A model generated the notes under the pieces. It made no database searches and was not told the DNA's origin. It was given only the letters and a program-made list of their open reading frames with translations. From an uncultured Thermoleophilia bacterium (GTDB taxonomy: Bacteria > Actinomycetota > Thermoleophilia > UBA2241), in the NCBI GenBank assembly GCA_963709845.1, contig CAVPXV010000005.1, forward strand, positions 439,032 through 503,031: DNA of 64,000 nucleotides, written 5' to 3'. Positions 41,593 to 63,501 of this stretch are shown one piece after another. The first letter of the stretch is position 1, and each line of letters begins with the position of its first letter. The position numbers and the translations under genes were made by a program.

Positions 41593-43014
41593 ATGAGAAG
41601 GTCACTCGCTCTACTCTGCGTCGTCGCGTGCCTGGCGGTGCTGGCGCTCATGCTCACCGCCGGCTTGGCGTCGGCACAAGACCGCAGCCGCCCGCCCCGC
41701 CGGCGGTCGACTGGACGCAGATGCTCAACTACGACCAGATGTCGCAGATGCTCCAGGACCTGAACACCGCCTACCCGAAGACGACCAAGCTGTTCTCCAT
41801 CGGGCACTCGTGGCAGGAGCGCCAGCTCTGGTGCCTCGAGCTCTCGGCGCCGATCGCGGCCGCCAAGCACAAGACCGGCGTCGCCTTGTTCGGCAACATC
41901 CACGGCGGCGAGCAGCAGGGCGGCATGGGCGCCGCCTACACCGCCTGGTGGCTCGCCACCCGGTACGGCAAGGACGCCACGGCGACCAAGATCCTCGGCA
42001 AGTACAACGTGTACATCGTGCCGCTGATCAACCCCGACGGCTATCAGCGGTCCTTCCTCGTCTCGACGCGCCAGAACATGCGCCCCACCGACGAGAACGG
42101 CGTCGCGGGGCCGTTCAGCGACCCGCGCTTCGACACCAACGGGGACGGCATCATCGCGCAGATCTACCAGCAGAACACGGGGACCCCGCCGGCCGTGGGC
42201 ACGATCGTGACGGGCGCCAACCCCGATCCCACGAACATCACGCCGCTTCAACTCTCCCGCGCAGTCCACGGTGTATGAGAGCCTGAGGCCGTGGCGGCAA
42301 CGGCGTGTGGATGGACCTCGACCGCAACGGCCTCTGGGGCGACGACGACTTCGGCAGCCTCGTCGACATGAACCGCAACTTCGACTACCTGTGGAACTAC
42401 CACGACGTGTCGGTGGTCCCGAACCTGGGCGCCAACGCCTGGACGAGCGCCGGCCCCGACGCGGCCTCCGAGCCCGAGGTCAAGGCCGTCCAGAACTTCC
42501 TCATCAGCCACCCGGTGGCGGCGCTCTCGACGCTGCACACCGGCGAGCAGTCGGTGCTGTGGCCGTGGTGCTACACTCCTGCGCCGACCACCGACGACGC
42601 CTTCATGGGCGCCACGTCCGCGCCATGGCCGCGGCGTGGTCCACGACGACCGGTCGTGGCATGTACACCATGACGTCCTACAACGACTACCCCACCTCCG
42701 CCGAGCTGATCGACTGGGCCTGGGGACGCCTGCACATCCACGCCTACACGCAGGAGGTCTACCAGGGCTACAGCGCCAGCAACCCGGACACCTGGTATCC
42801 GCGCACGACGCCGCCGGACCAGTGGATCTACATGGGCGACTGGCAGGGCCTGCACGAACATCTGGTTCCGCAACACCGGCTCCGCCCAGTTGCAGGGCAA
42901 GGCCTGCCGTTCCAGGACAAGCTGGTGGCCGGCGTCAAGGACAGCTTCGTCGTGATGGCCCTCAGCGAGCCGAACGGGATGGGCGCGATCGTCCCGGACT
43001 GGATCGTCTGGTGA
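41593..43014 (+). pseudogene. Secreted M14-family zinc carboxypeptidase, interrupted by three -1 frame changes
   Basis: Signal peptide in one frame (MRRSLALLCVVACLAVLALMLTAGLASAQ). M14 motifs in three other frames (LFSIGHSWQERQLWCLELS, GNIHGGEQQG, YIVPLINPDGY, DMNRNFDY, later NDYPTSAELIDWAW). Confidence 0.75.
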
Positions 43015-43111
43015 AGTGAGGCGACGCCAAGCGTTCGATTGACACTCTGACAGCCTGACGACGACGACGAGGCCGGGGCCCGGGTACTGGGGCCCCGGCC
43101 TCGTCACGTGA

Positions 43112-43282
43112 CTAGCGGTAGAGGCGCACGAGGACGCTGTAGCCGCACAGCCACACGACGAAGAAGAGGGCGAGGAACAGCGGGATCGCGACGCCGCGGG
43201 TGAACCACAGGGCGACCCCCGCGCTGACGATCAGCCAGATGATGTGCGCGCCGCGGCGCGTCGGCTTGCGTAGTCTCGGCAT
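43112..43282 (-). CDS. Small membrane protein (57 aa), not in ORF track
   Basis: MPRLRKPTRRGAHIIWLIVSAGVALWFTRGVAIPLFLALFFVVWLCGYSVLVRLYR with two predicted TM helices, upstream of the Mth938-like gene. Confidence 0.3.
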   Translation of the reverse strand: MPRLRKPTRRGAHIIWLIVSAGVALWFTRGVAIPLFLALFFVVWLCGYSVLVRLYR

Positions 43283-43358
43283 CCTCGGCGCAGTGTACAG
43301 GAGCGCGGCCGGCCGTGCCCCCGGCGGCGGCCGCGCGTGCGCCCGGCTCCTGCACGGG

Positions 43359-43712
43359 TCAGCAGGTGACGTGGAGGACGGCGTGGACGTCCTTGTCCCG
43401 CGCCTCGGTCACCAGGCGCAGCGCCGCCTCGGTGGGCAGGGCGACCAGCTCGATGCCGCGCCGCTTCGCCTCCTCCCCCACCTCCGGCATGACCGGCAGG
43501 CTGCCGGTCTCCCCGGTGCCCACGATGAGCGTGGCGCCGCCCCACGGGATGTCCTCGGCGAGGGACAGCGGGGTGTGGCCGTAGCGGCCGCGGTAGGGCT
43601 TGGAGGGCTTCTTGACGCGCTTGCGCACCGCGCCGGCGTCGATCACCACGTCGTGCGCGTACCGCCGGCCGTCGATCTCGATCTCGCCGAACTCGATCCA
43701 GCGCGCCTTCAC
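43359..43712 (-). CDS. Mth938-like domain protein (DUF498)
   Basis: 117 aa with MKARWIEFGEIEIDGRRYAHDVVID...TLIVGTGETG pattern. Confidence 0.7.
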   Translation of the reverse strand: MKARWIEFGEIEIDGRRYAHDVVIDAGAVRKRVKKPSKPYRGRYGHTPLSLAEDIPWGGATLIVGTGETGSLPVMPEVGEEAKRRGIELVALPTEAALRLVTEARDKDVHAVLHVTC

Positions 43713-43933
43713 GCTCCACCTCCCGCTGCGTTGCGTCCCCGGAACGAGAAACGGCCCCGGTGGGGGCTACCGCTCCGGGGCCAAGTCCCAGCAAGGGTAA
43801 GACAAGGGACGGCCTGACTCTACAACGAGGCCGCGCGGACGCAAGTGTCTTGCCGTTGACCGCGGCCGGGAGCGGGGCGAAAGACAGTCCGACCGTCCTC
43901 GGGGCGATAGACCGAAGCGCGGGCCGGCCGCCG

Positions 43934-44725
43934 TCAGGGGCAGCCGGCCCGCGTGCTGGCGCTCCGGGCCTGATGCAGGCGCCGGCTCACCAGTGGTCGT
44001 ACTGGTAGCGGTGCAGCTTGCTGAGGAGCTCGTGGGGACGGTCGCCGAGCGGCTTCCCGAGGGACTCCAGCGTCTTCAACAGGCCACGCACGTGGCCGCG
44101 GAACGCAGTCGTGTCGTTCGTGTCCATAGATGCCCTTTCGTTGCTGGCCCCTGATGGTTCCCGCAGGCGGCGCCGCGAAACCCCGACCGCGGCGGCAAGC
44201 TCGGTTCGCACGCACGCGCCAGGACCGGCACCGTACGCGCGACGACCGGCCCCTCGACCGGTCGTGGTGTTGTTCCCGAGTGAGCGCGAGACTACAGGTC
44301 AGAAGCCCACGGCGTCCGACTCCGAGCGTCCGGCCGCCACCGTTCCCGCCGTTGCCGGGGCGGGGACGAGACAGCGACTCGACGAAGTCGTCCGGGACCG
44401 GCAGCTGGCGCAGGAGGATGCCGTAGAGCTTGTCGGCGAGCTCGGGGGCGCAGTTGAGCACCTCCGTCACCTTGCGCAGGCGGAACTCGAGGAAGAAGTC
44501 CGGTTCCACGAGGAGCGCCGCGGCGATCACCGCGAGCACGTTGTCGGCCGGCACCGGCCGGGTCCCCTTGGTGAGGTGGTTGAGGTACCCGGCCGACAGC
44601 TTGGTCTTGTAGGCGAGCTGCCGGTAGCTCAGATGGCGCTCCTCCATCAGCCCCTTGAGGGCCTCCGGAAAGCGCTCCTGCGAGAAGCGGTTCTTGGCGA
44701 TCGGCGTGGTGTACATCGTGTTCAT
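43934..44725 (-). CDS. XRE-family HTH transcriptional regulator; 3' half of the ORF probably non-coding
   Basis: N-terminal Cro/C1 HTH (FPEALKGLMEERHLSYRQLAYKTKLSAGYLNHLTKGTRPV). Beyond about aa 120 the ORF is Arg/Gly-rich and overlaps a better small ORF. Confidence 0.6.
   Translation of the reverse strand: MNTMYTTPIAKNRFSQERFPEALKGLMEERHLSYRQLAYKTKLSAGYLNHLTKGTRPVPADNVLAVIAAALLVEPDFFLEFRLRKVTEVLNCAPELADKLYGILLRQLPVPDDFVESLSRPRPGNGGNGGGRTLGVGRRGLLTCSLALTREQHHDRSRGRSSRVRCRSWRVRANRACRRGRGFAAPPAGTIRGQQRKGIYGHERHDCVPRPRAWPVEDAGVPREAARRPSPRAPQQAAPLPVRPLVSRRLHQARSASTRAGCP
43987..44127 (-). CDS. Small protein (46 aa), possibly DUF397-like partner of the upstream XRE regulator
   Basis: MDTNDTTAFRGHVRGLLKTLESLGKPLGDRPHELLSKLHRYQYDHW with RBS AAAGGG. 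Sits directly downstream of an XRE-family HTH gene. Confidence 0.35.
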   Translation of the reverse strand: MDTNDTTAFRGHVRGLLKTLESLGKPLGDRPHELLSKLHRYQYDHW

Positions 44726-44859
44726 GACACTAAGAGATATCGCCCGCGGCGCCCGGATACTTGAGTGGCAACGCCGCGTGCGTTGTCACAGCGGACAACG
44801 CGAGGAGCTCTCCCCCAGCCTCGAAGGCGGCGTTGCCGCGCCGCGAGGCGGCCCTGGGG

Positions 44860-46565
44860 TCAGCGGTCGAGCAGCTCCCGCAGAGCGGCGGCGAGCTCGG
44901 CCACGGGCACGTCGCGGCGCTCGCCGCCGGCGCGGTCCTTGAGCTCGACGACGCCCTCGGGCGCGCGTTTGCCGACGACCACCTGCGCCGGGCAGCCGAG
45001 CAGGTCGGCGTCCTTGAACTTGATGCCCGGGGCTCAGGTCGCGGTCGTCGTAGAGCACCTCGAAGCCGGCGGCGGCGAGCTCGGCGTAGAGCCGCTCGGC
45101 GAGCGCCGCCTGCGTCTCGTCGGAGGCGCGCACGAGCACGAGGTGCACGTGGAACGGCGCGATCGCCGCCGGCCAGACGATGCCGTTGCCGTCGTGGTGC
45201 TGCTCGATGGCGGCGGCGGCGATGCGCGCCAGGCCGATGCCGTAGCTGCCCATGACGATGTCCTGCTCCTTGCCGTCCTCGTCGAGGTAGGTGGCGCCCA
45301 TGGGGTGCGAGTACTTGGTGCCGAGCTGGAAGATGTTGCCGACCTCGATCACCCGGGCGCCCTCGAGCTGCGTGGGCGCAGCGCGCGCAGGGGTCGCCCG
45401 GGCGCGCCTGGCGCAGGTCGCGGAACTCGGCCTGCGGGATCTGCGCCGGCGAGACGCCGCCGCGGTGGTAGTCGGGCTTGTTGGCGCCGGCGACGTAGGA
45501 GCCCCGGCGCAGCGCCTCGTCGGCGATCACCGGCAGCGAGGTCGGCACGGGGCCGACGAAGCCCGGCTCGATGCCCTGGGCAGCGAGCACCTCGTCGGCC
45601 GTCGCCATGCGCAACTCGGCGCCGAGCGCCTTGCGCAGCTTGAGCTCGCTGAGCTCGTGGTCGCCGCGCAGCAGGACCATGACGGCGCGGCCCTCGCCGC
45701 CCTCCGCGTCCTCGGCGATCACCACGAGCGCCTTCACGAAGCCGCGCGCCGGCACGCCGAGGAAGGCGCTCACCTCGGCGATGGTGCGCGCCCCGGGCGT
45801 GTGCAGCTCGCCCTCGCCGGGCACCTCGGCCGGCGCCTCCGCATCGGCGCCGGCGACGGCCGTCTCCACGTTGGCCGCGTAGCCGCACTCGCGGCAGTAG
45901 ACGATCTCGTCCTCGCCGGCCTCGGCGAAGGCCATGTACTCGTGCGAGACGTCGCCGCCCATCATCCCCGAGTCGCCCTCGACCATCATCACCGCGAGGC
46001 CGCAGCGCGCGTAGATGCGCTCGTAGGCGCCGATGTGCTTGCGGTAGCTCTCCTGGAGGGCCTCGAAGCTCACGTCGAGGCTGTAGGAGTCCTTCATGAT
46101 GAACTCGCGCGTGCGCAGCACGCCGCTCTTGGGCCGCGCCTCGTCGCGCTCCTTGGTCTGGATGTGGTACCAGAGCTGCGGCAGCTGCTTGTAGCTGTGG
46201 ACCTCGCGCGCCGCCAGCCAGGTGATGACCTCTTCGTGGGTCATCGCCAGCGCCATGTCGGCGCCCTTGCGGTCCTTGAGGCGGAAGAGCTCCTCGTCGA
46301 TGGCGTCCCAGCGGCCCGACTGCTGCCAGATCTCGGCCGGGTTGATGACCGGCATGAGCATCTCCTGGCAGCCGATGGCGTCCATCTCCTCGCGGATGAT
46401 GGCGGCGATCTTCTGCATCACGCGCCAGCCGGCCGGCAGGTACACGTAGACGCCGGCGGCGAGCTGGCGCACGAGGCCGGCGCGCACCATCAGCTTGTGG
46501 CTGATGGCCTCGGCGCCGGCCGGATCCTCTTTGACGGTGGGCAGGAGCAGCTGACTGGCGCGCAT
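44860..46565 (-). pseudogene. proS: Proline--tRNA ligase (bacterial type), two frame changes near the 3' end
   Basis: N-terminal 400 aa intact in ORF 44730..46565 (MRASQLLLPTVKEDP..., class II motifs). The anticodon-binding domain continues in ORF 44786..45352 ([18 protein letters not shown]...). The last about 55 aa ([10 protein letters not shown]...LLDR) are in a third frame. Confidence 0.8.
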
Positions 46566-46609
46566 GTGACCTCGCGATGGTGTGGTGTGGCGGGCGAGGC
46601 CCTATGCTA

Positions 46610-48856
<2,247 letters not shown>

Positions 48857-48913
48857 GCCGGCGATTGTATCAGCCGGCGCCGCCCGCCCGATGTCGGGGA
48901 CTGGCGACCGTTG

Positions 48914-50067
48914 TCAGGCTCGCACGAGCCTTCGCGCGTACTTCGTCGCCAGACGCAACGGCCTGTAGGGCCAGTACAGTGCCGTGAAGGCCGGCTTCAG
49001 ATCGAGCGCCACCCAATCCCCGGGGCCGGGCGTAAAGAGCCTTCGCAGCACGGATTCTGCCGCCGCCAGCGCCGAATCCTCGCTGAGCGCCATCCTGGCC
49101 AGGCTGCGCAGCTCGGCGCCGACCCCGGAAGAGCGGCCTTCGTGAAGCTGGAGAAGAGCCGCGCGAGCCAGCGACTCCGCGAGTGGGTCGCCGGAGAGCT
49201 CGGCCTGGACCTCCAGCGGCAGTGGCAGGTCGAGGGCCACACTCACGACGCGCGCGCCGATCAGACCACGGCGCAAGCAGCGCCAGCGGCGGGCGTCATC
49301 GAGGAAGATCCGCCACTGCGTCGGTGTCATCATGCGCATGACTCTCCCCGCGACCACCACTAGTTCAAGCCGGTCCCACTCGTGCCTTGCGCCGTGCACG
49401 CAGAGCATGAGCAGCGTGTCGTCCAGGCTCGGAGCGGCCACCGACCTGTCAAGTAGGTCAATCGAGTCGAGCGTTCGATGAGATGGTCCGCCGGGATAGA
49501 TGTGGCCTTCAGTAGCGTGCCGACGCGCTCGTGCACCTCCAGCAGGCAGTCGAGGGCTGGGCTGTCGAAGGCCAGCTCCCCGCCCTGCGCGAGATGCGAC
49601 GCGTCGTGCTCCGGTGGCCAGCCGCCGCGACGCGTGAACCCTTCCCGCAGCAGCGCTTCCGTCGCGAGCGGCACCTGCTCGTGAGGGACCAGCACGTCGA
49701 GGTCGGCCGGGGCTCTCAAGCCCGGGTCACCGAACGCTTGCACACTCAGCACGGGGCCCTTGTACGGCAGCGCCGTGATGCCGGCGGCAGACAGTAGGTC
49801 GAGCACGCGGCACAGTCGTGAGGACATGAAGAGGCCGCGCTGCACGGAAGATCGGTAGAGGCTCTGCAGGGTGTCCTTGGCGTCGGCCGGGCACAGGGAC
49901 GGATCCAGCGAGAGCACCTGCTTGTAGAGGAGCGCGCTGAGCCGGTGGTCGATGCTCTGCTGGATTACGGTGGGCCAGTCGACGGTGGCCCGAGCCGCCC
50001 GCTCGAGGTCGCTCGTCGAGGCCGCGCCGACCGCGACGCGCGCGCACGCCACCAGGAGCGGCGACAA
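48914..50067 (-). pseudogene. Nucleotidyltransferase-family protein (PF14907-like, RiPP-cluster associated), one frame change near 49400
   Basis: N-terminal part ...ITALPYKGPVLSVQAFGDPGLRAPADLDVLV; C-terminal part LLMLCVHGARHEWDRLEL in the adjacent frame. Confidence 0.65.
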
Positions 50068-50077: not shown

Positions 50078-51223
50078 TCAGCCAGTGTCCTCTCTCCTAT
50101 CGCCCGAGGATGGGCCGGGCGCCGGCGCCGCCAGTCGCCCGGCCGGGAACAGGCCGTCCTGCTCGGCGAGCTCGCAGAACCAGTAGGCGCCGAGCACGTC
50201 GCCGGAGCGGTAGTAGTTCTGGGCGATGCAGGAGCCGAGGCAGGCGGCGCGCATCAGGCAACGGCCACACACACCGCCGAGGCCGTCGGGCAGACCCTCG
50301 CGGATGCGCACGAGCACCGGGTGCTCGCGCCAAACGTGCGCCAGCTCGCCCTCGCCGGCGCGACCGAATACCAGCTCCGGCACGTGCTCGCCGATGCCGC
50401 ACAGCGCGTAGCTGCCATCGGCCAGCAGGCCCAGGATCCCACGGATGCCGCAGATGCCGCAGCCGTCGCCGCCGAGGTACTCCCCGAGGGGGCGGAAGGC
50501 CGCGGGGACGTCGACGTAGATCGGCAGGGAGAACCGCTGCCGGAGGTCGTCGCGCACCCGCGAGTGAAGCTCCAGGTACTCGCCGATCGACAGCCCCTCC
50601 CCGCTGGCGTAGATGTCCTCGCCGCGCAGCGTCGGCTGGATGAAGTTGATCTTCACGGAGCCGACGCCCAGCTCCTCGGCGAGCTCCAGCACCGCCTCGA
50701 GCTCGCCGACGTTCGTGCGCATCGCGCTCGTGATGAACTGCGTGTCGAGCCCTGCGGCGACCAGGTTGCGCGTGCCCTCGAGCGTGCGCGCATGCGCCCC
50801 GCGCACGCCGCGGATGGCGTCGTGCACGTCCGCGGAAGCGCCGTCGAGGCTCACGGAGACGAAGTCCACGCCGGCCTCCAGGAGGTGCTCCGCCAAGGCG
50901 CTGGTGACCAGGAGGCCGTTGGTCTCCATGTGCCCGCCGAGCCCGTGATGTGCCTGGATGTCCAGCAGCTCGCCGAAGGCCGGGTGCAAGGTCGGCTCTC
51001 CGCCCGTCCACTTGAGCGTCGTCAGGCCGAGCGGCTTGGCCTCCTCGATGGCGGCGTCCAGGGCGGTAGGCGTGAGGAAGCGCGCGGCGCGGCCGCCGCC
51101 CGCCTTCTTGGCAGGTACGATCCAGCAGTGCCTGCAGGCGCAGTTGCAGCCGTCGGTCACGTACACGTAGAGCTGGCGCAGGGGCGGCGTGCTCACGCTC
51201 GCCGGCGACTCCGTCACTTCCAC
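50078..51223 (-). CDS. Radical SAM/SPASM-domain peptide-modifying enzyme
   Basis: Cx3Cx2C cluster DGCNCACRHCW and a Cys-rich C-terminal SPASM region (CGICGI...CGIGE...CGRCLMRAACLGSC). Confidence 0.85.
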   Translation of the reverse strand: MEVTESPASVSTPPLRQLYVYVTDGCNCACRHCWIVPAKKAGGGRAARFLTPTALDAAIEEAKPLGLTTLKWTGGEPTLHPAFGELLDIQAHHGLGGHMETNGLLVTSALAEHLLEAGVDFVSVSLDGASADVHDAIRGVRGAHARTLEGTRNLVAAGLDTQFITSAMRTNVGELEAVLELAEELGVGSVKINFIQPTLRGEDIYASGEGLSIGEYLELHSRVRDDLRQRFSLPIYVDVPAAFRPLGEYLGGDGCGICGIRGILGLLADGSYALCGIGEHVPELVFGRAGEGELAHVWREHPVLVRIREGLPDGLGGVCGRCLMRAACLGSCIAQNYYRSGDVLGAYWFCELAEQDGLFPAGRLAAPAPGPSSGDRREDTG

Positions 51224-52318
51224 CCCGCGATCCCCTCGGCCTCGAGCTCCGCCTCAAAGCGGCGCAGGCAGGCGTCGGGGCTCGGCCGATTGGCGTCGCC
51301 GAGCAGCGAAAGGGCTCCACCGGCGCAGTTGCCGGTGCACGACTCGATGTAGTCGCAGCCCGCGCACTCCTCGAACTCGGCCAGCGCTTTCTGCCGGCGC
51401 GCGCGCAGCTCCTGCAGCGCCGGCGCGCTCTGCCACACGTCCACAAGCCGGTCTTCGCCGATGTGGCCGAGTACGATCTGCGGCAGCGCCACGCACGGCA
51501 CGTAGGCGCCGTCGGCGCGCACCGCAAGTTGCTTCAGCATGCAGCCGCAGCCCACGAGTTTGCCATGCCCTGGGATGGGCTCTCCCGCCTCCCGCGCCAG
51601 CTCCAGGGCGCAGAACATGTGCCAGTCAGCGAGAGGGCCGGCCATGGCAGTCACGCGCCCCGGATAGCGTTCCTCGAGCTCGGCGAGCGTGTGCATGGCC
51701 TGCACCCGCTGCGCCGGCGTGAGGAACATCCCGAGCTCGTACTTCTCGTGGGTGCCCAGCGAGGTGATGGCGTTGGTGCTGAACGTCGGCAGGCCGAGGT
51801 CGTCGAGCAGGAGCGCCGCCAGCGCCGGCAGGTCGTCGAGGTTGGCGCGCGTTCACAGTCACGCGCACGGTCGTCGGCAGCCCGGCCGCCTGCAGCGTGC
51901 GGATCGCGCGCAGTGCAGGCTCGAAGGTGCCGGGGCCGCGCAGGCGCTCGTGCGCCGCTGCGGTGGAGCCGTCCAGGGAGACCTGGACGGACGAGCACCG
52001 CCGCGTCGCCGCCAGCGCCTGCGCGAGCTCAGCCGTGACGAACCACCCGTTGGTGAGCACGCGAAAGCGGATGTTGCGGCTGCCGAGCTCCTCGGCCAGC
52101 TCGACGAAGTCGGGCCGCATCAGCGGCTCTCCGCCCGCCAGCGTGGCTTCGAGGACCTTTGCCTCGGCGAGTTCGTCGAAGAAGGCGAGCCACGCCGACG
52201 TGGGCAGGTCCTCGTAGCGCACGCCCTCGTTCTTCAGGTAGTAGCAGTAGGCGCAGCGCGCGTTGCAGCGGCTGGTGAGCTCCAGGTCGACCTCGAGAGG
52301 CGTGCGCGGCAGCGAGGC
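51214..52318 (-). pseudogene. Second radical SAM/SPASM-domain enzyme, one frame change near 51680
   Basis: Radical SAM half LELTSRCNARCAYCYY...LAGGEPL in ORF 51626..52504. SPASM half (CGCMLKQLAVRADGAYVPCV...CAGCDYIESCTGNCAG) in ORF 51214..51729. Confidence 0.75.
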
Positions 52319-52323
52319 CAGCG

Positions 52324-52623
52324 TCACGAAGCCACCCTCAGCGCACCCGCGTCGGCCAGGGCGCCCAGCAGCTCCACCACCTCGCGGCTCCCCTCCTGGT
52401 CGAAGCCGTCGAAGCCGCGGCGGAGTTCCGCCAGCAGGTCTCCGACCGTGCGTTCGCCGACCACAAGCCTCCACACGGCAACCGTCGAGCGATTCGCGAC
52501 CCACACCTCGCCGGTGTCCGCGTCGAACAGGATCGCCTCGCCGCCATCTTCCTCCCTGAGCACCCAGCTCGGGTTGATGGTGACTCGCGCGCCCGCGTCC
52601 AAATCGGGTCGATCAGCTCGCAT
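52324..52623 (-). CDS. PqqD-family peptide chaperone (RiPP recognition element)
   Basis: 99 aa with WVLREEDGGEAILFDADTGEVWVANRSTVAVWRLVVGERTVGDLLAEL, the PqqD pattern. Confidence 0.7.
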   Translation of the reverse strand: MRADRPDLDAGARVTINPSWVLREEDGGEAILFDADTGEVWVANRSTVAVWRLVVGERTVGDLLAELRRGFDGFDQEGSREVVELLGALADAGALRVAS

Positions 52624-52676
52624 CGTGCCTCCACTCCCCGCGACTCCTCGACGTCTCGCGCCGGAGTCGCGCTACA

Positions 52677-53681: not shown

Positions 53682-54306
53682 GCGCGCCGACAGGGACGTA
53701 CGACACTTCGTCTACCGCGGGCGAAGCATGTGGCCGCTGTTCCGGGACGGTGACGTCCTCATGGTGCGGCCGGTGCGTGGGCGATCGATACGCCTGGGGG
53801 ACTGCGTCGTGTTTTGCTCGCGACCCGGCCTGCCGCCGATAGTCCACCGTGTCGTTGGCCGCACGGGCGGTTACAGAACGAGAGGCGACGCGCACGCCGA
53901 GTACGACGATCAAGTACTGGGCTCGCTAGACGTGATCGGCGTCGTCTCTGCGCGAGTCCGGGCCGGAGCCGTCAGTAGGGTGTCAAGAGGTTGGAGGGGC
54001 CTCGGCGCGGCGAGCATCGCTCGCCAGGCCGCGAAGCTCGATCCTGCGCTCGACTCGCGAGGCGGCGCACTGGCTCGCGTGCTGAGGCGCACGCTGACGC
54101 GGGCGGCGGACAACCTGGGCCGCCGTGTGACCCACGTGCCTCAGCCTCAGGGTCAAGGAGATCGCGTGGTGCGGCTGGAACTGCTGGGGAAGGTCGTCGG
54201 CGTGCACACCATGCGGCACAGGCACATCGACGTCGACGTGTTCTGGCCGTGGACGCTGCTCTTCACAGCTGAAGCCCTCGAGGAGGGTATCTGCGGGCGA
54301 AGCTAG
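53671..54306 (+). CDS. S26/LexA-like signal-peptidase family protein (candidate leader peptidase)
   Basis: GRSMWPLFRDGDVLMV...GDCVVF...PIVHRVV...TRGDAHAEYDDQV...VIGVV, the SPase I / S24-S26 motif order. ATG overlaps the upstream stop. Confidence 0.65.
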   Translation: MLAERADRDVRHFVYRGRSMWPLFRDGDVLMVRPVRGRSIRLGDCVVFCSRPGLPPIVHRVVGRTGGYRTRGDAHAEYDDQVLGSLDVIGVVSARVRAGAVSRVSRGWRGLGAASIARQAAKLDPALDSRGGALARVLRRTLTRAADNLGRRVTHVPQPQGQGDRVVRLELLGKVVGVHTMRHRHIDVDVFWPWTLLFTAEALEEGICGRS

Positions 54307-54333
54307 GCTTCAGCGCCAGACCGCCGCTCAGGT

Positions 54334-54522
54334 CTACCTGCTGGAGCCGACCTGGCAGTTGCCCTGAAAGTGAGTCCCGCCGGTCTGACAGTGGTTGCCG
54401 GAGGCCGCGGTGCTGCCCGTCTCACAGACGCCGGTCGTCACTGTAGAACCGTTGCTGCACGCCCCAAAGACTTCGGGTAGGGACTCAAGTTTGACTAACT
54501 TTGGTGTCTCCCAACGCTCCAC
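54334..54522 (-). CDS. Candidate RiPP precursor peptide (62 aa, 4 Cys in 11-12-residue repeats)
   Basis: GTG start with RBS AAAGGGG. MERWETPKLVKLESLPEVFGA leader-like part, then CSNGSTVTTGV/CETGSTAASGNH/CQTGGTHFQGN/CQVGSSR. Codon usage is A/T-ending (tta, aaa, ttt, aca, tct, tgt), unlike the rest of the window. Confidence 0.6.
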   Translation of the reverse strand: MERWETPKLVKLESLPEVFGACSNGSTVTTGVCETGSTAASGNHCQTGGTHFQGNCQVGSSR

Positions 54523-54895
54523 AGTTCGGCCCCTTTGTGTGCGTTTCCCGCTCGGTTGCGCGCCATCCTACTTCGTTCGGGGTTCCGGACGCAAGAGTCA
54601 GGATGGTGTCAAGCATGCCTTTCGCGACCAGGTCCTCGACGAACGCGAGGAGGTCACCGAGCAAGTCGTCTGGCGCCGCGTCGAATCGCGTGGCCGCTCC
54701 GCCGACCACGTCGCGCAGCGGTCGAGAGCCGTCGATGAGCTCCCAGATCGCCTGCCCTGTCGCGTTGAGCGTGAACAGATCGTCGAGCGGGTCGCCGGCA
54801 TCCGCGTGCAGGGGCGCGAGGACGACGCGGCCGCCGACCAGGCGGGCCGCGACGTCCGGCGAGTGGATCAGGACGGTGTCGGGTGAGAGCGTCAC
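54485..54895 (-). CDS. Second PqqD-family protein
   Basis: GTG start. VLAPLHADAGDPLDDLFTLNATGQAIWELIDGSRPLRDVVGGAATRF pattern. The 3' end overlaps the precursor ORF start in another frame. Confidence 0.6.
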   Translation of the reverse strand: MTLSPDTVLIHSPDVAARLVGGRVVLAPLHADAGDPLDDLFTLNATGQAIWELIDGSRPLRDVVGGAATRFDAAPDDLLGDLLAFVEDLVAKGMLDTILTLASGTPNEVGWRATERETHTKGPNCGALGDTKVSQT

Positions 54896-55074
54896 GGTCG
54901 CGCCATTATGCCACGCCGCGCCCGCCCCTCCTCCCCCACCGGGCGCATTCTCTGTAGTATCTGGGCGGGCCGCGCCCGCCGCAGGGGGAGCGCGGCCCGG
55001 GCCCGAGGAGGCCGGCGCTGAGCGAGGAGCAACGCAAGCCCCAGATCCGCGACGCCCTGCACCTCGTCGACGCG

Positions 55075-56862
55075 GTGCGGCTGGTGTGGCGCGCCGCCCC
55101 GGGCTGGACCGTCCTCACCGTCTCCCTCGCCTTCGTCCAGGGCATCCTGCCGCTGTTCGCCGTCTACCTGATGAAGCTCATCGTCGACGCGGTGACGCAG
55201 GGCATCACGCAGGCCGACCACGCCGCCGCCTTCCGCACCGCCGCCTTCTACATCGCCCTGGCGGCGCTCGTCGGCCTCGCCACGGCGCTCCTGCGCTCGC
55301 TCGGCGCCGTCGCCAGCGAGGCCATGGGCCAGGTGGTCACCGACCACGTCAGCGACCTCATCCACGAGAAGTCCATCGCCGTCGACCTCGAGTACTACGA
55401 GAACGCCGAGTACTACGACACCCTGCAGCGCGCCCAGAACGAGGCGCCCTCGCGCCCCACGCAGATCGTCAACGACCTGCTGAGCACCGGCCAGAGCCTC
55501 ATCTCCGTGATCGCCATGGTCGGCCTGCTGCTCACGCTGCAGTGGTGGGTCGGCGCGATCGTCGTCGCTCACCGCCATCCCCGGCGCCCTCGTGCGCGTG
55601 CGCTACTCGCACCGCCTCTACGACTGGCAGCGCGGGCGCACCTCCACCGAGCGCCGCGCCTGGTACGCGCACTGGCTGCTCACCAGCGGGCCGCACGCCA
55701 AGGAGGTGCGCCTCTTCGGCCTCGGCGAGCTCTTCCGCGGCATGTACAGCGACCTGCGCCGCGTCCTGCGCACCGAGCGCATCGGCATCGCCAAGCGGCG
55801 CGCCGCCGCCGACTTCGCCGCCGGCGCCCTGGCCGTGCTCGCCATCTTCGGCACCTTCGCCTACATCGTCTGGGAGACGATCATCGGCGCCATCAGCCTG
55901 GGCTCCATGGTGATGTACTACCAGGCCTTCCAGACCGGCCTCACCTCGCTGCAGGCCGTGCTCGGCGGCATGGCCGGGCTCTACGAGGACAACCTCTTCC
56001 TCACCTACTACCACGAGTTCATGGCGCTGGAGCCGCGGGTGCTGCCGCCGGCGCAGCCGGCGCCGGTCCCGCGGCCGATGAGCGAGCGGCGTCCACTTCG
56101 AGGCCGTCGACTTCGCCTACCCGGACACGGAGCGCCAGGCGCTCGCCGACGTCACCCTCGACATCCGCCCCGGCGAGGTCGCCGCCCTGGTCGGCCCCAA
56201 CGGCTCCGGCAAGACCACGCTCGTCAAGCTCCTGTGCCGGCTCTACGACCCCACGGCCGGCGCCATCACCCTCGACGGCACCCCGACCGAGCGCCTTCGA
56301 CGTCAGCGAGCTGCGCCGCCAGATGAGCGTCATCTTCCAGGACTTCTCGCAGTACCAGTTCACGGCGCGCGAGAACATCCGCATCGGCAACGTGGAGCTG
56401 GCGGCGGGCGACGCCGGCGGCGGAGGCGGCGGTGGAGGCCGCCGCCCGCGAGGCCGGCGCCGACGAGGTCATCCGCAGCCTGCGCCACGGCTACGAGACG
56501 ATGCTCGGGCAAGCTGGTTCGAGGAGGGCGAGGAGCTGAGCGTGGGCGAGTGGCAGAAGGTGGCGCTCGCCCGCGCCTTCGTGCGCGACGCGCAGATCCT
56601 CGTCCTCGACGAGCCCACGAGCGCGCTCGACCCGGAGGCCGAGTGGCAGATCTTCCAGCACATCCGCGAGCTCGCGCGCGGCCGCGCCGTGGTGCTCATC
56701 AGCCACCGCTTCAGCACCGTGCGCACGGCCGACCGCATCCACATCCTCGACGGCGGCCGCATCGTCGAGAGCGGCAGCCACGACGAGCTCGTCGCCCTCG
56801 GCGGCCGCTACGCGCGCATGTACGAGGTGCAGGCGCGCGCATACACCACCGGCGACGGATAG
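55075..56862 (+). pseudogene. ABC exporter (fused TMD-NBD, MsbA/MdlB-like), at least 5 frame changes
   Basis: TMD in ORFs 55075.. and 55592..56326. NBD motifs split across frames (Walker A GPNGSGKTTLVKLL, Q-loop, signature LSVGEWQKVALARAF, Walker B ILVLDEPTSALD, H-loop ISHR). Confidence 0.8.
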
Positions 56863-56910: not shown

Positions 56911-58146
56911 GTGATCGACGCCGGCCCAACCACACGACCAGCATCGCGCCTCTGGAGGCGCTGCACGGCCGGCGCGGCGCCTCGCCGCGGTCGCCTCCGT
57001 CACGCCACCCGCCTGGCCGCCGTCGCGGCTCTCGTGCTCCTCGGGTTCGCCGGCTCGGCCGCCGCCCTGGCGGCGGCCCCGCCGCCCGCCTCAGCCCTCT
57101 CCAAGGGCCTCATCGAGCCCCGCTACGAGCAGTCCACGACGGACCTGGTTCGCGCCAGGCTCATCACGCAGATGGGGTCGCAACTCCACACCGGCTGGGT
57201 GCTCATCAACGTCGATTGGGCCAAGCCTGGAGCCCACGCGCGGCCTCTACGACCCGGTCGAGGTCGCGCGCCTCGACACACTCGTCAACGGCCTGCACAA
57301 GGCCGGCATCAAGGTCATGCTCTCTCCCTGCTACGTGCCGGCGTGGGCCTCGCAGACCTCGTGGTGGACGAAGCCGCCGCCGAGCTACGGCGTCGGGCTA
57401 CCAGCCCTTCTACCCCATCCGCTCGGACGCCCTGCCGGACCTCACCCGTCTGGGCAAGTTCCTTGCCACCCACTTCAGCGGCCGCGTGCAGGCGCTGCAG
57501 TGCTGGAACGAGCCCAACCTGTGGCCGTTCCTCTACCCGCAACGCACCAGCGACGACGCCTACTTCGGGGCGCGCACCTACCTGGGCATGCTCAAAGCGT
57601 TCCACGCCGGCGTCACGCAGGCGCACACCAAGGTCCAGGTCGTCGCCGGCGCCACGGCGCCGATCGGCCTCAACGACTCCATGCGCACCAGCCCTCAGCG
57701 CTTCGCCGGCTTCCTCGCCCGCAACCACGCGGGCAGCTACTTCGACGCCTACTCGCACCACCCGTACACGCCCGGCGGCACCATCTTCCAGCGCCCCGAC
57801 CAACCGCCCAACGACCCTTCGGTGACGGTCACGCTCTACAACCTGAGCACGCTGCTGCGCCTCTTCCCCACCAAGCCCTTCTACCTCACCGAGTACGGCT
57901 ACAACACGCACCCGTCGATGGCGTTCGGCTACTTCACGGTGAGCGCCGCCAAGCAGGCGGTGTACCTGCGGCTGGCGTACGCGCGGGCGCGCAAGTACCC
58001 GCAGGTCAAGGTGCTGTTCTGGTACCTGCTCTACGATTCGCGCCCGACGTCCGGGCCGGCCGAGCAGGGGCGTCTACACGGGCCTACGAGAGGGCAACGG
58101 GACGCGCAAGCCGGCCTGGTACTCGTTCCGCGACCTGCCCAGGTAA
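56911..58146 (+). pseudogene. Secreted GH5-like glycoside hydrolase, 3 frame changes
   Basis: Signal peptide, then WNEPNL (catalytic acid region) and TEYGYN (nucleophile region) split over ORFs 56911.., 57317.. and 57216.. Confidence 0.6.
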
Positions 58147-58208: not shown

Positions 58209-58960
58209 CTACTTCTTGACGGTGAGCGTCGAGCTGTTGCCGGTGGTCGTGGCGGCGAGGTACGGAGCCGCCTTCGTTGCGTTGGTGTAGGCCTGGAAGC
58301 GGTACTTCCCAGCGGAGCCGAGCTGGAGCGTGAGCGAGTACTTGCTGTAGGCGCCGCTATTCGAGTTGGTCGCCGTGTAGGTCTTGTACGTGCTCCATTT
58401 GCCGTTCTTGTAGCGGAAAGCGCTGATGTGCACGGGATTGACGCCCGGCCCGGCCTGCGGCTTGAGCGTGCCGGTGATGGTGAAGTTCTTGTTGATCTTG
58501 ACGGAGGCCGGCACCTTGGGGACGGTCAGCGACGGCTTGACGTGGATGAGCAGCGAGTTGCTGAGGGACGGGATCGTACGGAGGGTTGCCGAGGAATACG
58601 AAGCGGTAGTAGGTGAGCTGCTGGGGGTACACCACGGCGGCGTATTGGCCGGTGGCGTACTGCCCCGGGTCGGTGGTGAGCGTGGCGAGGAGCGTCCACG
58701 GAGAGGGTGACCGGTGGGCGACCACTCCAGACGCACGAACTGGCCGCCGAGGGCCGTGAGCGTGACGTATCCATGAGGGTGCCGGTGACGATCTTGTAGC
58801 CGCCCCAGGTGATGGTCGAGTTGGTCGGGACGGCCGTGAGGCTCGTCGTGTCGGCGGCGGCGATGGCCGGGACGACGAGCATCACCAGCATCGCCGCGAC
58901 GACGACGAGCAACACCGGCACCTTCATCCGGGCGGGCTTGATCGCGGACCTTGCGTTCAT
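58209..58960 (-). pseudogene. Secreted beta-sandwich (Ig-like) protein, 2 frame changes
   Basis: Signal peptide MKVPVLLVVVAAMLVMLVVPAIAAA in ORF 58526..58960. Beta-rich Thr/Ser domain in ORF 58209..58736. Confidence 0.45.
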
Positions 58961-59015: not shown

Positions 59016-60698
59016 CTATGCGAGTGGCGCGGCGGAACAAAGGGGGACGACGCTTCTGGCCGCCGCCGTGGGCGGCGCCGAGGAGGCCGTCAGGCGATCG
59101 GCGCTGCCGGCTTGCTCGTCTTGGCCTCGTACTTCTTGCCGCTCCGGCTGTACGAGTAGCCGGACGAATAGGAGGAGTAGTAGCGCCCCTGCCGGTGCTC
59201 GCCGTCGGTGCGCACGATGATGCCGAGCGCGGCGCACGGGAGCTTGCCGAGCTGCTCGGCCGCGCGCTCCAGCATCGGCCTCGTCGCGACGTGCATGTCG
59301 ACCAGGAACACGAGTCCGTCCACCGTCGAGGCCAGCGCCGCCGTGTCGCCCACGGCAAGCAGCGCCGGCGAATCCACGAGCACGATGTCGGCCGTTGAGA
59401 CAAGCGTCTCGATCATGCCGGCGAACCGCCGGGACGCGACGATCTCGCCCGGGTTCGGCGGCAGCGGCCCGCTGGTGAGCACGTAGAGGGAAGTGACGCC
59501 CTCGCTGCCGGCCGCCCATCCCTCGAAGTCCACACCGTTGGCCCCGTTGCCGCTCGAGGTCACCACGACCTTCTGCAGCGCCGAGTCCAGCGGGCCCTTC
59601 CCGGTCGTGACGGTGCTCACGCCGTGTTCGTTGTCGAGCCCGAAGTACTGATGCTGGCGCGGGCGCCGCAGGTCCCCGTCCACGACGATGACCTTCTTGC
59701 CGGCGAGCGCCATGGCCACCGCCAGGTTGGCGACGGTGACGCTCTTGCCCTCGCCCTGGATGCCGCTCGTCACGAGCAGCGAGTGCACGTGGGCATCGAC
59801 GCTCATGAAGTCGAGATTCGTGCGCACGAGGCGGAACGCCTCGGCGGCGTGCCCGTCGGGGTCGCTCAGAGTCGCGACGGTGTGCTCGCCCAAGAGCCGC
59901 TTGGAGATGCGCGGGATGCGACCGAGGACGGGCTGACGAAGGACCTGGGCCACTTCCTCGGAGCGCCGTACGCGCGTGTCGAACTGCTCGAGGAGGAAGG
60001 CCAGGCCGATCGCCAGCGAGGAGCCCGACGCCGAAGCCGAGCACGGCGCTGCGCAGCGGCTTTGGCGAGACCGGCGCTGCGGGCGGCGTCGCCGGCACCA
60101 GCACGCGGAAGTTGCCCGTGGCGGTCGCCTTGAGGATCCTGAGGTCCTGCAGGCGCTGTGCGAGGACGAGGTAGTCGGTGCTCTGCTGGGCCGCTCCCTG
60201 ATAGGACTTGAGCTGCGTCTTGGTCGCGTGCGATGGCCCGCTGGATCTGCGTGGCGGTCTGCTCGCGTGCGCCAGCGCGACGAACGCCACCGCGTAGGCG
60301 TTGGCGGCCGCGGCCGCCAGCCTGGGGCTCGAGCTCGTGGCGGTGATGCGCACCACGTTGCTCGTCGTCGTCGTGGCCGCCGCCCCGGTGTCGGTGACGG
60401 GCTGCGACGAGACCGTGAAGCCGGTGACCGCGACGCCCTTGTCGCGCAGCACTCGAGCGGCTCGCCGCGTCATGTCCGGGCTCGCCAGCACGCTCCCTAC
60501 GCTGGCCAGCTCGAGGTTGCGCGCGGTGGGGTCGGTGTACGTCTGCCCGGTCAGCGGATTGGAGAGGTCCAGCTGCTGCTCGTAGATGAGGTCGGCGCTG
60601 GCCTCATACTGTTTGGTCTGGCGCGCCGAGAAGAAGTAGGCCGAGCCCGTGGCCACAGCGACCACCAGCAGGATGATCCACTTGCGGCGCCAGAGCAC
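59016..60698 (-). pseudogene. Fused Wzz-type chain-length determinant + BY-kinase (polysaccharide tyrosine autokinase), one frame change near 60020
   Basis: N-terminal TM/Wzz part LWRRKWIILLVVAVATG. Kinase part with Walker A GIQGEGKS, VVDGDLRRP and a Tyr cluster YYSSYSSGYSYS in ORF 59090..59953. Confidence 0.8.
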
Positions 60699-61074
60699 GG
60701 CCAGGTAGTCGCCAAGCGTGATGGCTCGGCCCTCGCCAAGTTCGCTCGCCGCGCTGGGCGGAGCCGCCTGGCTGGTGGGCGGGGGAATCGTTTGTGGGGG
60801 TCACTTGATCCCTTCGATCAATCGCGGCGCCACGACCGGCCGCTGGGCACACATGCAGACAGTAGCAGGACGAGACTCCCAGTCCAACCGCGGCGAAGCG
60901 AGGGCTGCCGTGCCGGCAGGACGCATGGCGGGCCACCATCGAGGTGTGACCCTGCTTGTGAACGGAAATTGCGAGCGTCGTCAGCCACTTCACAGTAAGA
61001 TGTGCCCCTGAGGCCGCTAACGGGGGTCCGCGGGCAATGACCGTCACGAGAGGTCGCGCTCAATCGAGACATGC

Positions 61075-62528
61075 GTGCGCCACGGCTGCTGCCGTCGCGC
61101 AGCCGGGCTGCTGCGCGCGCATTCGCTGCGACGTGGCCTCAGCGTCCTCGCCCTCATGGCGACTGACGTCGGGGCGTTCGCTCTGTCGTACGCACTCGTA
61201 TCGCTGGCATCGGGACTCGCGCGACTCGCGGCGTGGCACGGCGTGTCTCGTCGCGGGTTCTTCACCGCCGAGCGTGGCCATCGTGGTGCACATGCGCTGC
61301 TGAAGGGGCTCTACGGTCGCCTCCACGCTCGCCACTCCGCCAGAACGGATCCTCTCTGCGTGGGGCATCGCCGCGTTGGTGACGACGCTGGTGCTCGTCG
61401 TCATCGATGGTGACAGCATCGGGCTCCGGCTTCTCGTCGTGTGGTGTCTCGCCACGGCGATTTCGCTGGCGGCAGGTGGGCCTACGACACGTGCGTGTGG
61501 CTCGCTACGGGCAGGAGGCAGAGCACCCGCCCTGCCCTGCTCCTCGGCAGCCTGGACTCGTGCCAGCGGGCCCTGCCCGTGCTTCCGGCGCTTCCGCCCG
61601 AGAGTCCGGGTCTCGGTCGTCGGCTTCGTCGTGCCGTCGAGAAGAGAGTGGCTCGACCGTGGCACACGGAGGGCCACCCCCGTCGTCGGCACTCTCGACC
61701 AGCTGGCAGGGTCGGCGAGGAGTACGGGAGCGACGAGGTCGTCATAGCGGATCGCGACTCGGTCAACGGGCAGCTGAGCGGCGTCATGGACGCGTGCCGC
61801 ACCCACGGCGTCGGCGCTCAAAATGATGGCGACGGGCTCTCAATCTGAATGGCGACCGCGTGACCTACGTGCCGGGATTCGACTGCCCGATCTTCGTCGA
61901 TGCAGACGAAGCCAGGCCGGGCACGCGAGCTTCCTCGCCAAGCAGGTCCTGGATCGAGTACTCGCTGCGCGTCCTTGCTCCTCCTCCTGAGTCCACTGCT
62001 GGCGGGGCTTGCCCTGGCGATCAAGCTGACGTCAGCAGGGCCTGTGTTCTTCGTCGATGAGCGGGTGGGCATCGGGCAGCAGCCGTTTCGCCTGTACAAG
62101 TTCCGCACGATGGTCGCAGACGCCCGAGAGACGCAAGCCGCTCTCGAGTCCGAGAACGAGGCAGGCGAACGTGCTGTTCAAGATCCAGGAGGACCCCAGG
62201 GTGACGCCGCTGGGTCGCGTCCTGCGGCGGTTCAGCCTCGACGAGCTGCCGCAGCTCGTCGAACGTTCTCAAGGGCGACATGAGCCTCGTGGGTCCCCGC
62301 CCGCTGCCGCTGCGCGATTGCGCGCTGATGGAGGACTGGCAGCGACAGCGGCACGTCGTCCTCCCGGGCATCACCGGGCTGTGGCAGGTGAGCGGCCGCA
62401 GCTGTCTCGACTTCGACGATATGATGGACCTCGATCTGCGCTACATCGAGACGTGGTCGCTGACCAGCGACCTGCACATACTCTGGAGGACTGCCGACGC
62501 AGTCGTCCGTTCGCGTGGCGCCTGCTGA
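61075..62528 (+). pseudogene. Polyprenyl-phosphate glycosyl-1-phosphate transferase (WbaP-like sugar transferase), about 4 frame changes
   Basis: Bac_transf motifs LLLLLSPLLAGLALAIKLTSAGPVFFVDERVGIGQQPFRLYKFRTM, VLFKIQEDPRVTPLGRVLRRFSLDELPQL and MSLVGPRPL...PGITGLWQVSGRS in successive frames. Confidence 0.7.
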
Positions 62529-62563
62529 ATTCCCGCCGGTCGCTCTGTCGAAAGGGATCGCCA

Positions 62564-63501
62564 ATGCCCACATCTGTCGTGACCGGCGGCGCCGGATTCC
62601 TCGGGTCACACCTTTGCGAGTACCTGCTGAAGAAGGGCTCACCGAGTCATCTGCCTGGACAATCTCGATACTGGCACCCTCGAGAACATCGAGCACATGC
62701 GCGACGACGGCTTCGAGTTTCGTGCCGTGGACGTCAGCGAGCTATATCGCCATCGACGAGCCCGTGGACTTCGTCTTTCATCTCGCGAGCCCCGCGAGCC
62801 CGATCGACTACCTGCGACTGCCTCTTCACACGCTGAAGGTGGGCTCCTACGGTACACACAACGCGCTCGGTCTCGCCAAGTTCAAACGCGCGCGGTTTCT
62901 GCTTGCCTCAACTTCCGAGGTCTACGGCGACCCGCTGGAGCACCCCCAGAAGGAGACCTACTGGGGCAACGTGAATCCCATCGGTCCCCGAGGCGTCTAC
63001 GACGAGGCGAAGAGGTATGGTGAGGCGCTGACGATGGCCTACCATCGCCAGCAAGGTGTGGACACGTGCATCGCACGAATCTTCAACACCTACGGACCTC
63101 GCATGCGGGCAAACGACGGTCGGGCAGTGCCGACATTCATTACGCAGGCTCTCAATCATCAGCCTCTCACGGTGTTTGGCAACGGCTCTCAGACACGGTC
63201 ATTCTGCTACGTCGACGACCTCGTCGAAGGCCTCTTCCGGCTCGCGAGCCATGACGTCCACGAGCCCGTCAACCTAGGCAATCCCGACGAGTACACGCTG
63301 ACGGAACTGGCCGAAATCGTGCTCCGAGCTACCGGAAGCTCCAGCCGAGTCGTCTACGAGGCTTTGCCGACGGATGACCCCAAGGTGCGACGCCCGGACA
63401 TCACTCGCGCCACCAAGCTGCTCGGCTGGGCTCCGGGTGTGCCGCTAACTGAGGGGATGACCCACACCGTCGAGTTCGAGCGGCAACGCCGAACTGGCTA
63501 G
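62564..63501 (+). pseudogene. UDP-glucuronate decarboxylase / NAD-dependent epimerase (UXS-like), 2-3 frame changes
   Basis: [25 protein letters not shown] (Rossmann), then [18 protein letters not shown]-type segment and the intact 3' two thirds ([11 protein letters not shown]...). Confidence 0.75.

Follow-up and report, generated by a model that had tools for sequence, protein, structure and literature searches.

Many adjacent genes are frameshifted in pseudogene-rich decaying genomes, such as those of Mycobacterium leprae and of recent host-restricted symbionts. There, the frameshifts come together with stop codons, nonsynonymous changes, deletions and a loss of codon bias, essential genes are spared, and bacterial gene decay in general shows a deletion bias. 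Frameshifted but conserved open reading frames (ORFs) are also found in endosymbionts, where they are rescued by transcriptional slippage on poly-A – a rescue that depends on the shift lying in a long homopolymer.

The indel errors of Nanopore metagenomes – measured with IDEEL and corrected with tools such as proovframe (PMC9262707; PMC13087279; bioRxiv 10.1101/2021.08.23.457338) – likewise take the form of single-base indels that split conserved genes on the long contig of an uncultured organism, and frameshift-aware alignment to homologues likewise restores the proteins. In its classical form, the Nanopore error concerns homopolymer length and is spread over low-coverage genomes. Nanopore-only assemblies become near-finished only from ~40x coverage upward (PMC9262707), and only 57–70% of predicted proteins are full-length in soil ONT assemblies (PMC13087279).

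The sequence considered here, referred to as the window, is a stretch of 64,000 nucleotides within a 682,755-bp contig from an uncultured Thermoleophilia bacterium, whose closest relatives are Nanopore-only metagenome-assembled genomes (MAGs) produced with Flye and one round of Medaka (PMC12313526). Unlike decay of the Mycobacterium leprae type, the window retains a GC3 of 0.8–1.0 in its corrected frames and intact conserved columns, and the essential gene proS is among those hit. Unlike the classical Nanopore error, its indels avoid homopolymers, are insertions in 72–79% of cases and form kilobase-scale zones beside error-free sequence, while the indels of its sister contigs concentrate where SNPs are dense and resemble synonymous SNP alleles. 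We consider it very likely that the frameshifts arose as consensus errors when long metagenome reads were assembled, and that the organism itself does not carry them.

The frameshifted zone

In the deposited sequence, 14 or more genes of the window are broken by single-base indels that disrupt the frame, ~38–48 in all (roughly 40–50 in a rounder estimate). They begin at ~40.1 kb and continue at least as far as 62.7 kb, and there are none at 0–40 kb. A preceding sequence-only reading had counted at least 12 broken genes with one to five shifts each, at about one event per 700 bp, and had found the first 41 kb free of shifts, apart from a missing rimO start. The breakage itself is borne out, as is the clean state of the first 40 kb, whereas the per-gene ceiling is too low (there are seven shifts in gmd and up to ten in a sugar transferase gene) and the actual density is ~1 per 470–600 bp, rising to 1 per 125 bp in gmd/fcl. 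The onset, too, lies ~1.5 kb earlier than claimed, near 40.1 kb, with the first two shifts at 40115 and 40525. The zone follows a tRNA-Pro gene and belongs to a region of the genome that varies between strains.

The same picture emerges from a Viterbi segmentation on codon usage, for which the long ORFs of the window served as the training set. In the 0–39 kb control region, gene boundaries are clean and every segment closes at its own stop codon, with a single spurious mid-gene excursion (34356–34499); beyond 40 kb, there are ~39 same-strand frame switches, a few of which are true gene boundaries. Both insertions and deletions occur, as previously described, yet the mixture is uneven: +1 events make up 11 of the 14 shifts placed by alignment and 28 of the 39 Viterbi junctions (~72–79%), and −1 events about a quarter of the total.

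Affected genes and their corrected products

The frame errors begin with an extra C at 40115, relative to the same-species contig L082, in a YkoF-like gene (39848..40151, forward strand); apart from this +1 shift, its product shows 100% identity to that of L082 over 101 aa. It is followed by a hypothetical gene of 107 aa (40348..40655, reverse strand), whose product is 95% identical to its L082 counterpart and which is shifted once, by −1, at ~40525, where the window is without a G compared with L082. The next gene, for an M14 zinc carboxypeptidase (41593..43014, forward strand; Peptidase_M14 on the stitched protein), has ~5–6 shifts, placed by comparison with L082 and by Viterbi junctions at ~41680, ~42240, ~42292, ~42433–42613, ~42855 and ~42903; a G present in L082 at 41682 is missing from the window. 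The M14 copy of L082 is also broken, but at other places.

For proS, gmd and fcl, shift positions were obtained by frameshift-aware protein-to-DNA alignment, with two to four independent references per gene in agreement. The essential proS, encoding proline-tRNA ligase (44863..46592, reverse strand), had already been recognised as broken and indeed has a +1 shift at each of two positions, 45374 and 45031; once stitched, ProS matches NF006625 at 713.9 bits in one stretch, with residues 1–557 on positions 5–558 of the 559-position profile. The gmd gene for GDP-mannose 4,6-dehydratase (46702..47928, reverse strand) has seven shifts on which three references agree (47507, 47368, ~47230, 47042, 46978, ~46905 and 46864), and the stitched Gmd scores 568.8 bits against TIGR01472 across all of them; its 388 aa align over 100% of their length, at 84–86% identity, to intact homologues of 384–389 aa. 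Three references likewise agree on five shifts in fcl, encoding GDP-L-fucose synthase (47876..48877, reverse strand), at 48310, 48225, 48134, ~48005 and 47957; the stitched Fcl matches NF047922 at 423 bits. A single-frame tblastn match (64% identity) had made Fcl appear intact in one frame, a reading that was rejected when frameshift-aware alignment gave the five shifts and 82% identity.

Further along the reverse strand, an NTP_transf_5 nucleotidyltransferase gene (48914..50067) is split by a shift near 49400–49440: positions 3–166 of the Pfam profile fall in the ORF at 49360–50067 and positions 177–244 in the ORF at 48914–49441, which is in a different frame. A RiPP-like block (50078..52584, reverse strand), with Radical_SAM in two stretches, SPASM and PqqD, comprises a PqqD-like gene (52340–52584), a radical SAM/SPASM gene (51214–52339) with one shift at ~51849 and a second, seemingly intact radical SAM gene (50141–51228). 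On the forward strand, an ABC exporter with fused permease and ATPase (54958..56862) has five shifts (55566, 56086, 56292, 56421 and 56509), and residues 68–623 of its stitched product align in a single stretch to both TIGR02204 and TIGR02203.

A secreted glycoside-hydrolase-like protein previously read as GH5 (56946..58128, forward strand), for which Pfam support is weak, has ~4 shifts – 56985, ~57163–57225, 57392 and 58047 – according to Viterbi segmentation and frameshift-aware alignment with a relative's ORF (46% identity). Codon usage alone points to shifts at 58769, 58700 and 58584 in a gene for another secreted protein (58212..58942, reverse strand), for which a search for a family match found none. 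In the gene for a Wzz/BY-kinase chain-length determinant (59111..60725, reverse strand), matches to Wzz, GNVR and the TIGR01007 tyrosine autokinase flank a single +1 junction at ~60017. The initiating sugar transferase gene (Bac_transf; 61041..62420, forward strand), with tblastn HSPs in three frames, has up to ten shifts, of which two (62167 and 62258) are secure; the other eight (61098–61968) come from one reference of 43% identity. Finally, a UXS-like NAD-dependent epimerase/dehydratase gene (62576..63501, forward strand) changes frame near 62700–62741, with positions 2–43 of the Pfam Epimerase profile in the frame of the ORF at 62057–62836 and positions 61–240 in the ORF at 62515–63501. 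Nearly all shift positions listed in the sequence-only reading are reproduced within ~20–50 bp, with larger offsets for two of them (51680 against 51849, and 62650 against 62741).

Adding or removing one base per site again yields a full-length conserved protein for ProS, Gmd, Fcl, the ABC exporter and others; stitched proteins also match the radical SAM/SPASM, NTP_transf_5, M14, Wzz/BY-kinase, Bac_transf and UXS-like epimerase families. Corrected ProS and Gmd contain no stop codons and are conserved to the same degree as intact homologues. Private changes affect 2 of 288 invariant columns in ProS (the homologue median being 1) and, despite the seven shifts, 0 of 186 in Gmd.

Comparison with same-species contigs

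Another sample provides three same-species contigs (L081, L082 and L083) that are 97.3–98.9% identical to the window. The direct comparison between assemblies covers 40.1–42.2 kb of the zone, and none of the three shifts that can be tested there (40115, 40525 and 41682) is present in L082. For 43–64 kb, a search for same-species DNA found none, and the best relatives of ProS and Gmd are 83–86% identical. A fragment-targeted search for a second same-species ProS returned the window's own product alone, at an E-value cut-off (1e-150) that would miss short fragments. In frameshift-aware alignments, the reference genes of relatives are unshifted at the window's shift sites.

The contigs of the other sample have indel clusters of their own at loci where the window is intact, affecting LigD and housekeeping genes. 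In L082, LigD contains seven extra single bases as well as a 2-bp deletion; contig_31907 has ten extra bases over window positions 4.0–5.6 kb. Over 13–19 kb, 86 extra bases in contig_31907 stand against 9 in the window, and contig_31907 has none over 21–28.7 kb. This contig departs from the window at 30279; its apparent end at window ~38.7 kb, derived from the coordinate offset alone, was wrong. The gene content of the zone differs in the other sample.

The sister-contig clusters sit in tracts of 20–70 SNPs per kb. Since mismatches in and around them are biased to third codon positions – the LigD cluster differs from the window by 15 synonymous and 2 nonsynonymous mismatches – they represent real strain SNPs. 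At 40–43 kb, frame damage in both assemblies makes the codon-position analysis of mismatches uninformative.

Sequence context of the extra bases

The shifts had been described as lying often at GC homopolymers or CCCGGG-like sites. This does not hold: the homopolymer runs found up to 7 nt from a shift are of background length at their longest and do not exceed 4 at any of the 19 placed shifts – unlike in endosymbiont slippage – and CCCGGG lies near 1 of the 19. A search of the shift sites for slippery homopolymers or a common motif found neither. Homopolymer-type sites account for 0 of the window's 11 placed +1 sites, significantly below the null of 33%. Among 55 exactly placed extra bases, 74.5% are unlike both neighbours (null 48%) and 0 lie in a run longer than 3. 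On these counts, a homopolymer-length error of the Nanopore R9, 454 or Ion Torrent type was rejected.

In the sister assemblies, 65 of 80 isolated extra bases are unlike both flanks (null 35.3 ± 4.4), and 43 of these 65 would be a synonymous replacement for one of their flanking bases (conditional null 28.0 ± 3.9), mostly C or G at third positions. At the window's own 11 placed +1 sites, this two-allele signature is seen 6 times, which does not differ significantly from the null of 40%.

Origin of the frameshifts

The platform and pipeline behind the window's contig were presumably of the long-read type, judging from its length, its lineage and the naming of the sister contigs. From ~40.1 kb on, the consensus caller would have added a single base in about three quarters of the events and dropped one in about a quarter. 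The read pile-up probably mixed co-occurring strains in this strain-variable part of the genome, so that, at a strain SNP, both alleles would be written in series, giving a 1-bp insertion; the inserted base would then be unlike its neighbours and resemble the synonymous alternative of an adjacent third codon position. Locally low coverage may also play a part. Extrapolating from the sister assemblies, where the signature is significant, we take this two-allele mechanism to be the most likely proximate cause in the window too. The model leaves the −1 events (~1/4) unexplained.

The strongest competitor, which we regard as somewhat unlikely, is that the stretch has very low coverage or is unpolished, so that near-raw long-read errors survive and strain mixing plays no role. 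The error zones are of kilobase scale with sharp onsets, about a quarter of the events are deletions, the two-allele signature is not significant in the window itself, and the literature links residual indels to coverage below ~40x (PMC9262707), all of which would fit. Raw-read noise should, however, bring substitutions and homopolymer-length errors as well, whereas the invariant columns of Gmd and ProS are nearly untouched, no run longer than 3 contains any of the 55 exactly placed indels, and synonymous SNP alleles are mimicked far above the rate for random insertion.

Far less probable is that the shifted genes are genuine pseudogenes, the accessory region with its RiPP-like and polysaccharide loci decaying in this strain. 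In favour of this, the deposited record does contain the frameshifts, and the zone is strain-variable, lies downstream of a tRNA-Pro gene and differs in gene content from the other sample. Against this, essential proS carries two shifts, in-frame stops are absent, invariant residues show no excess of change, and seven frameshifts in the 1.2 kb of gmd with its conserved residues undamaged would be an implausible mutation spectrum. Moreover, the insertion bias runs opposite to bacterial decay, the three testable shifts are missing from L082, and like clusters strike LigD and housekeeping genes in the other sample, where the LigD mismatches are overwhelmingly synonymous. The preference for uncorrected assembly indels over decay, voiced in the sequence-only reading, is therefore upheld: proteins are restored free of stops and of substitution damage, an essential gene is broken, insertions predominate, the shifts are not shared, and the clusters are reciprocal between assemblies.

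We give still less credence to dense insertion tracts made in vivo in strain-variable regions and specific to a population, for instance through error-prone repair by the adjoining Ku/LigD. Programmed ribosomal frameshifting or transcriptional slippage would in principle go with perfectly conserved corrected frames, but is hardly credible with up to 7–10 sites per gene in both directions, lacking slippery homopolymers or common motifs and not kept in relatives or same-species contigs.

Implications

The public record holds truncated or chimeric products – for example, a ProS of 611 aa without the anticodon-binding domain (P0286), which is the window's own broken product – and such products will spread to protein databases and to pathway and essential-gene inferences. 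The signature described here – non-homopolymer +1 events in SNP-dense, strain-variable tracts, with mimicry of synonymous alleles – could serve in the quality control of long-read MAGs and could argue for strain-aware polishing, which is a point of method, not a genome discovery.

For the organism itself, consensus error goes together with underlying genes that are, very probably, intact and under normal purifying selection; its proS, gmd/fcl, RiPP-like and polysaccharide genes are almost certainly intact. The frameshifts are an ordinary artefact of low biological interest, and finding them matters for annotation quality only, not for biology.

Extent of the frameshift zone

From 40115 to ~62741, the window carries about 38 well-supported frame-breaking events (up to ~48), or one per 470–600 bp; they are especially dense in gmd/fcl (12 shifts in 1.5 kb) and in the sugar transferase gene. 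Assembly artefacts of this general kind are known, and the zone is one of them, though its signature is somewhat unusual.

As plain ORF lists are uninformative at the 71% G+C of the window, coding regions were delineated with a codon-usage model trained on long ORFs of high GC3 from the window itself, combined with a seven-state Viterbi segmentation. From 0 to 39 kb, almost all coding segments finish within ~30 nt of a stop codon in their own frame – and thus at ordinary gene boundaries – with one spurious mid-gene excursion. Beyond 40 kb, dozens of segments stop hundreds of bases short of any stop and resume on the same strand in another frame; concatenated, they give stop-free proteins. Together with profile matches of the stitched proteins and a custom frameshift-aware protein-to-DNA aligner (two to four independent references per gene), the segmentation confirmed the dense frameshifts described in a sequence-only reading and recovered nearly all of the positions proposed there. 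The onset lies before the 41.6 kb which that reading gave: comparison with same-species products places the start of the zone at 40115 and a second shift at 40525, a YkoF-like gene being 100% identical to such a product over 101 residues, bar one extra C at 40115.

Proteins restored across the junctions

Four stitched proteins match their models as one stretch across the junctions: ProS, with two shifts (NF006625, 713.9 bits, residues 1–557 on profile positions 5–558 of 559), Gmd, with seven (TIGR01472, 568.8 bits), Fcl, with five (NF047922, 423 bits), and residues 68–623 of the ABC exporter (TIGR02204 and TIGR02203). Family models are also matched by two radical SAM/SPASM proteins and by stitched NTP_transf_5, Peptidase_M14, Wzz/GNVR/BY-kinase, Bac_transf and UXS-like epimerase products; for NTP_transf_5 and UXS, successive parts of one Pfam profile are matched by raw ORFs in different frames. 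The shift positions in proS, gmd and fcl are concordant among two to four references per gene. Frameshift-aware alignment raises the identity of Fcl from 64% (single-frame tblastn) to 82%, and stitched Gmd (388 aa; gene at 46702–47928) can be aligned along 100% of its own length with intact homologues of 384–389 aa. In this lineage, Gmd is ~385–389 aa long and has an insertion of ~25–45 aa that the 342-position TIGR01472 model lacks; all close relatives keep this insertion.

Probable source of the assembly

The nearest proteins come from metagenome-assembled genomes of uncultured Thermoleophilia (Actinomycetota), many of them in the Nanopore-only Microflora Danica series, with a top ProS identity of 82–83%. 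One NCBI/ENA contig of 682,755 bp carries 12 intact window ORFs from 0–38 kb, one from 43.4 kb and the broken ProS. Related genomes were made with Flye and one round of Medaka, without short reads (PMC12313526); R10.4 consensus is near-finished only from about 40x coverage (PMC9262707), and full-length predicted proteins make up only 57–70% in soil ONT assemblies (PMC13087279). The window's own contig was probably produced by a Nanopore-only workflow of the Flye/Medaka type.

Reciprocal error zones in same-species contigs

ENA assembly ERZ25039488 holds two same-species contigs, contig_31907 and contig_93812, which are 97.3–98.9% identical to the window. The shifts at 40115, 40525 and 41682 are absent from contig_93812, and both contigs have dense +1 insertion zones of their own: positions 5058–6669 of one compared stretch of contig_31907 (L081), the equivalent of window 13–19 kb in another (L083), and 4125–5418 of the contig_93812 stretch (L082). 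In contig_31907, there are 10 extra bases over window 4.0–5.6 kb, 86 over 13–19 kb (against 9 in the window) and none over 21–28.7 kb. The LigD gene of contig_93812, with seven extra single bases and one 2-bp deletion, is for that reason called as three fragments, whereas LigD in the window is a single unbroken ORF of 856 aa. The zones of the sister contigs likewise fragment DAP epimerase and further housekeeping genes that are whole in the window. Such reciprocal clusters indicate error zones of the same kind, at different loci, in each assembly.

Likely mechanism

In clean stretches, mismatches between the assemblies are almost all synonymous third-position changes (9 of 9), and within the LigD cluster synonymous mismatches outnumber nonsynonymous ones by 15 to 2, which identifies them as true SNPs between strains. 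The insertion clusters fall in tracts rich in SNPs (up to 48–72 per kb), where the third-position bias is retained. Among 80 isolated extra bases of the sister contigs, within genes clean in the window, 65 match neither neighbouring base (random-insertion null 35.3 ± 4.4). Of these 65, 43 would be a synonymous replacement for one of their neighbours (conditional null 28.0 ± 3.9); the great majority are third-position C/G alternatives, with the same spectrum as real SNPs. This signature is as expected if a consensus step, faced with piled-up reads from two or more strains, were to write the two alleles of a SNP one after the other.

For the window's zone, we infer the same cause from its strain-variable setting, the same insertion bias and the same avoidance of homopolymers. 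The shifts had initially been associated with GC homopolymers or CCCGGG-like sites, an association that did not hold: homopolymer-type sites account for 0 of 11 (null 33%), the maximum run length in the 7 nt around 19 placed shifts matches background, and CCCGGG lies near only one of the 19. The two-allele signature itself is found at 6 of 11 sites (null 40%, not significant), and about a quarter of the zone's events are deletions, which serial writing of alleles leaves unaccounted for. The chief competing candidate for the origin of the artefact is low local coverage.

Artefact rather than decay

The initial preference for uncorrected assembly indels is supported by conservation, essentiality, indel spectrum and independent assemblies. 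At columns with an invariance of 97% or more across 120 homologues, corrected ProS is off-consensus at 2 of 288 (homologue median 1) and corrected Gmd at 0 of 186 despite its frameshifts, and neither contains a stop codon; genuine decay is very unlikely, as drift long enough for seven indels would have brought many such changes. The essential proS is broken, its deposited product being a 611-aa chimera without the anticodon-binding domain. Insertions of +1 make up 11 of 14 alignment-placed shifts and 28 of 39 Viterbi junctions; bacterial mutation is deletion-biased, so this opposite excess also argues for an artefact and against decay.

Strain-variable surroundings and other loci

Both sister contigs lose synteny with the window at 30276–30279 and again after ~42.2–42.9 kb. 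At the first break, the match of contig_31907 ends (30279) and that of contig_93812 begins (30276), and a tRNA-Pro(GGG) gene (28447–28524) lies ~1.8 kb upstream; the site resembles a structural junction particular to the strain, or the edge of an island beside a tRNA gene. Within the portion of the M14 gene that encodes the C-terminus (42167–42947), the identity of contig_93812 falls from 98.5% to 86.8%, and unrelated genes (L082 11895–16099) replace proS, gmd and fcl. One relative's locus (L001) keeps the order fcl–gmd–proS, followed by a homologue of the window's 44.3–44.8 kb gene; another (L002) has ~6.5 kb between gmd and proS. Given the arrangement kept in L001, the window's gene order looks native, and contig_93812 appears to carry another.

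The small gene at 43934–44795 (minus strand) is homologous to a ~159-aa protein adjoining proS in relatives; the alignment spans 44795–44315, and in the window the frame remains open to 43934. Either another indel near the 3′ end has removed the stop codon, or this species has a longer version of the protein. The ~2.4 kb that separate the PqqD/radical-SAM block from the ABC exporter (52585–54957) show hardly any recognisable coding signal, the sole hit being a weak Peptidase_S24 match (ORF 53539–54306); RiPP precursor genes may lie in this stretch, or it may be too indel-damaged to read.

In rimO (3194–4493, plus strand), whose missing start was also pointed out initially, there is no in-frame ATG, GTG or TTG from the upstream stop to codon 3447 (3197–3446), and the conserved N-terminus FFIQTLGCPKN begins earlier, at ~3216. 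As L081 shows no difference from the window over 2954–3424, this is not an assembly-specific error. An in-frame ATC lies upstream of the conserved N-terminus, at ~3189, and rimO may start at a non-canonical codon.

Implications

Further ProS database entries without the anticodon-binding domain (P0289, P0293, P0294 and P0296), on long ENA contigs of up to 201,581 bp, suggest that frameshift artefacts like this one are common throughout public assemblies of this class. The content of the zone – the M14 peptidase, proS, gmd/fcl, the PqqD/radical-SAM/NTP_transf_5/ABC-exporter block and the polysaccharide locus – should be treated as intact.
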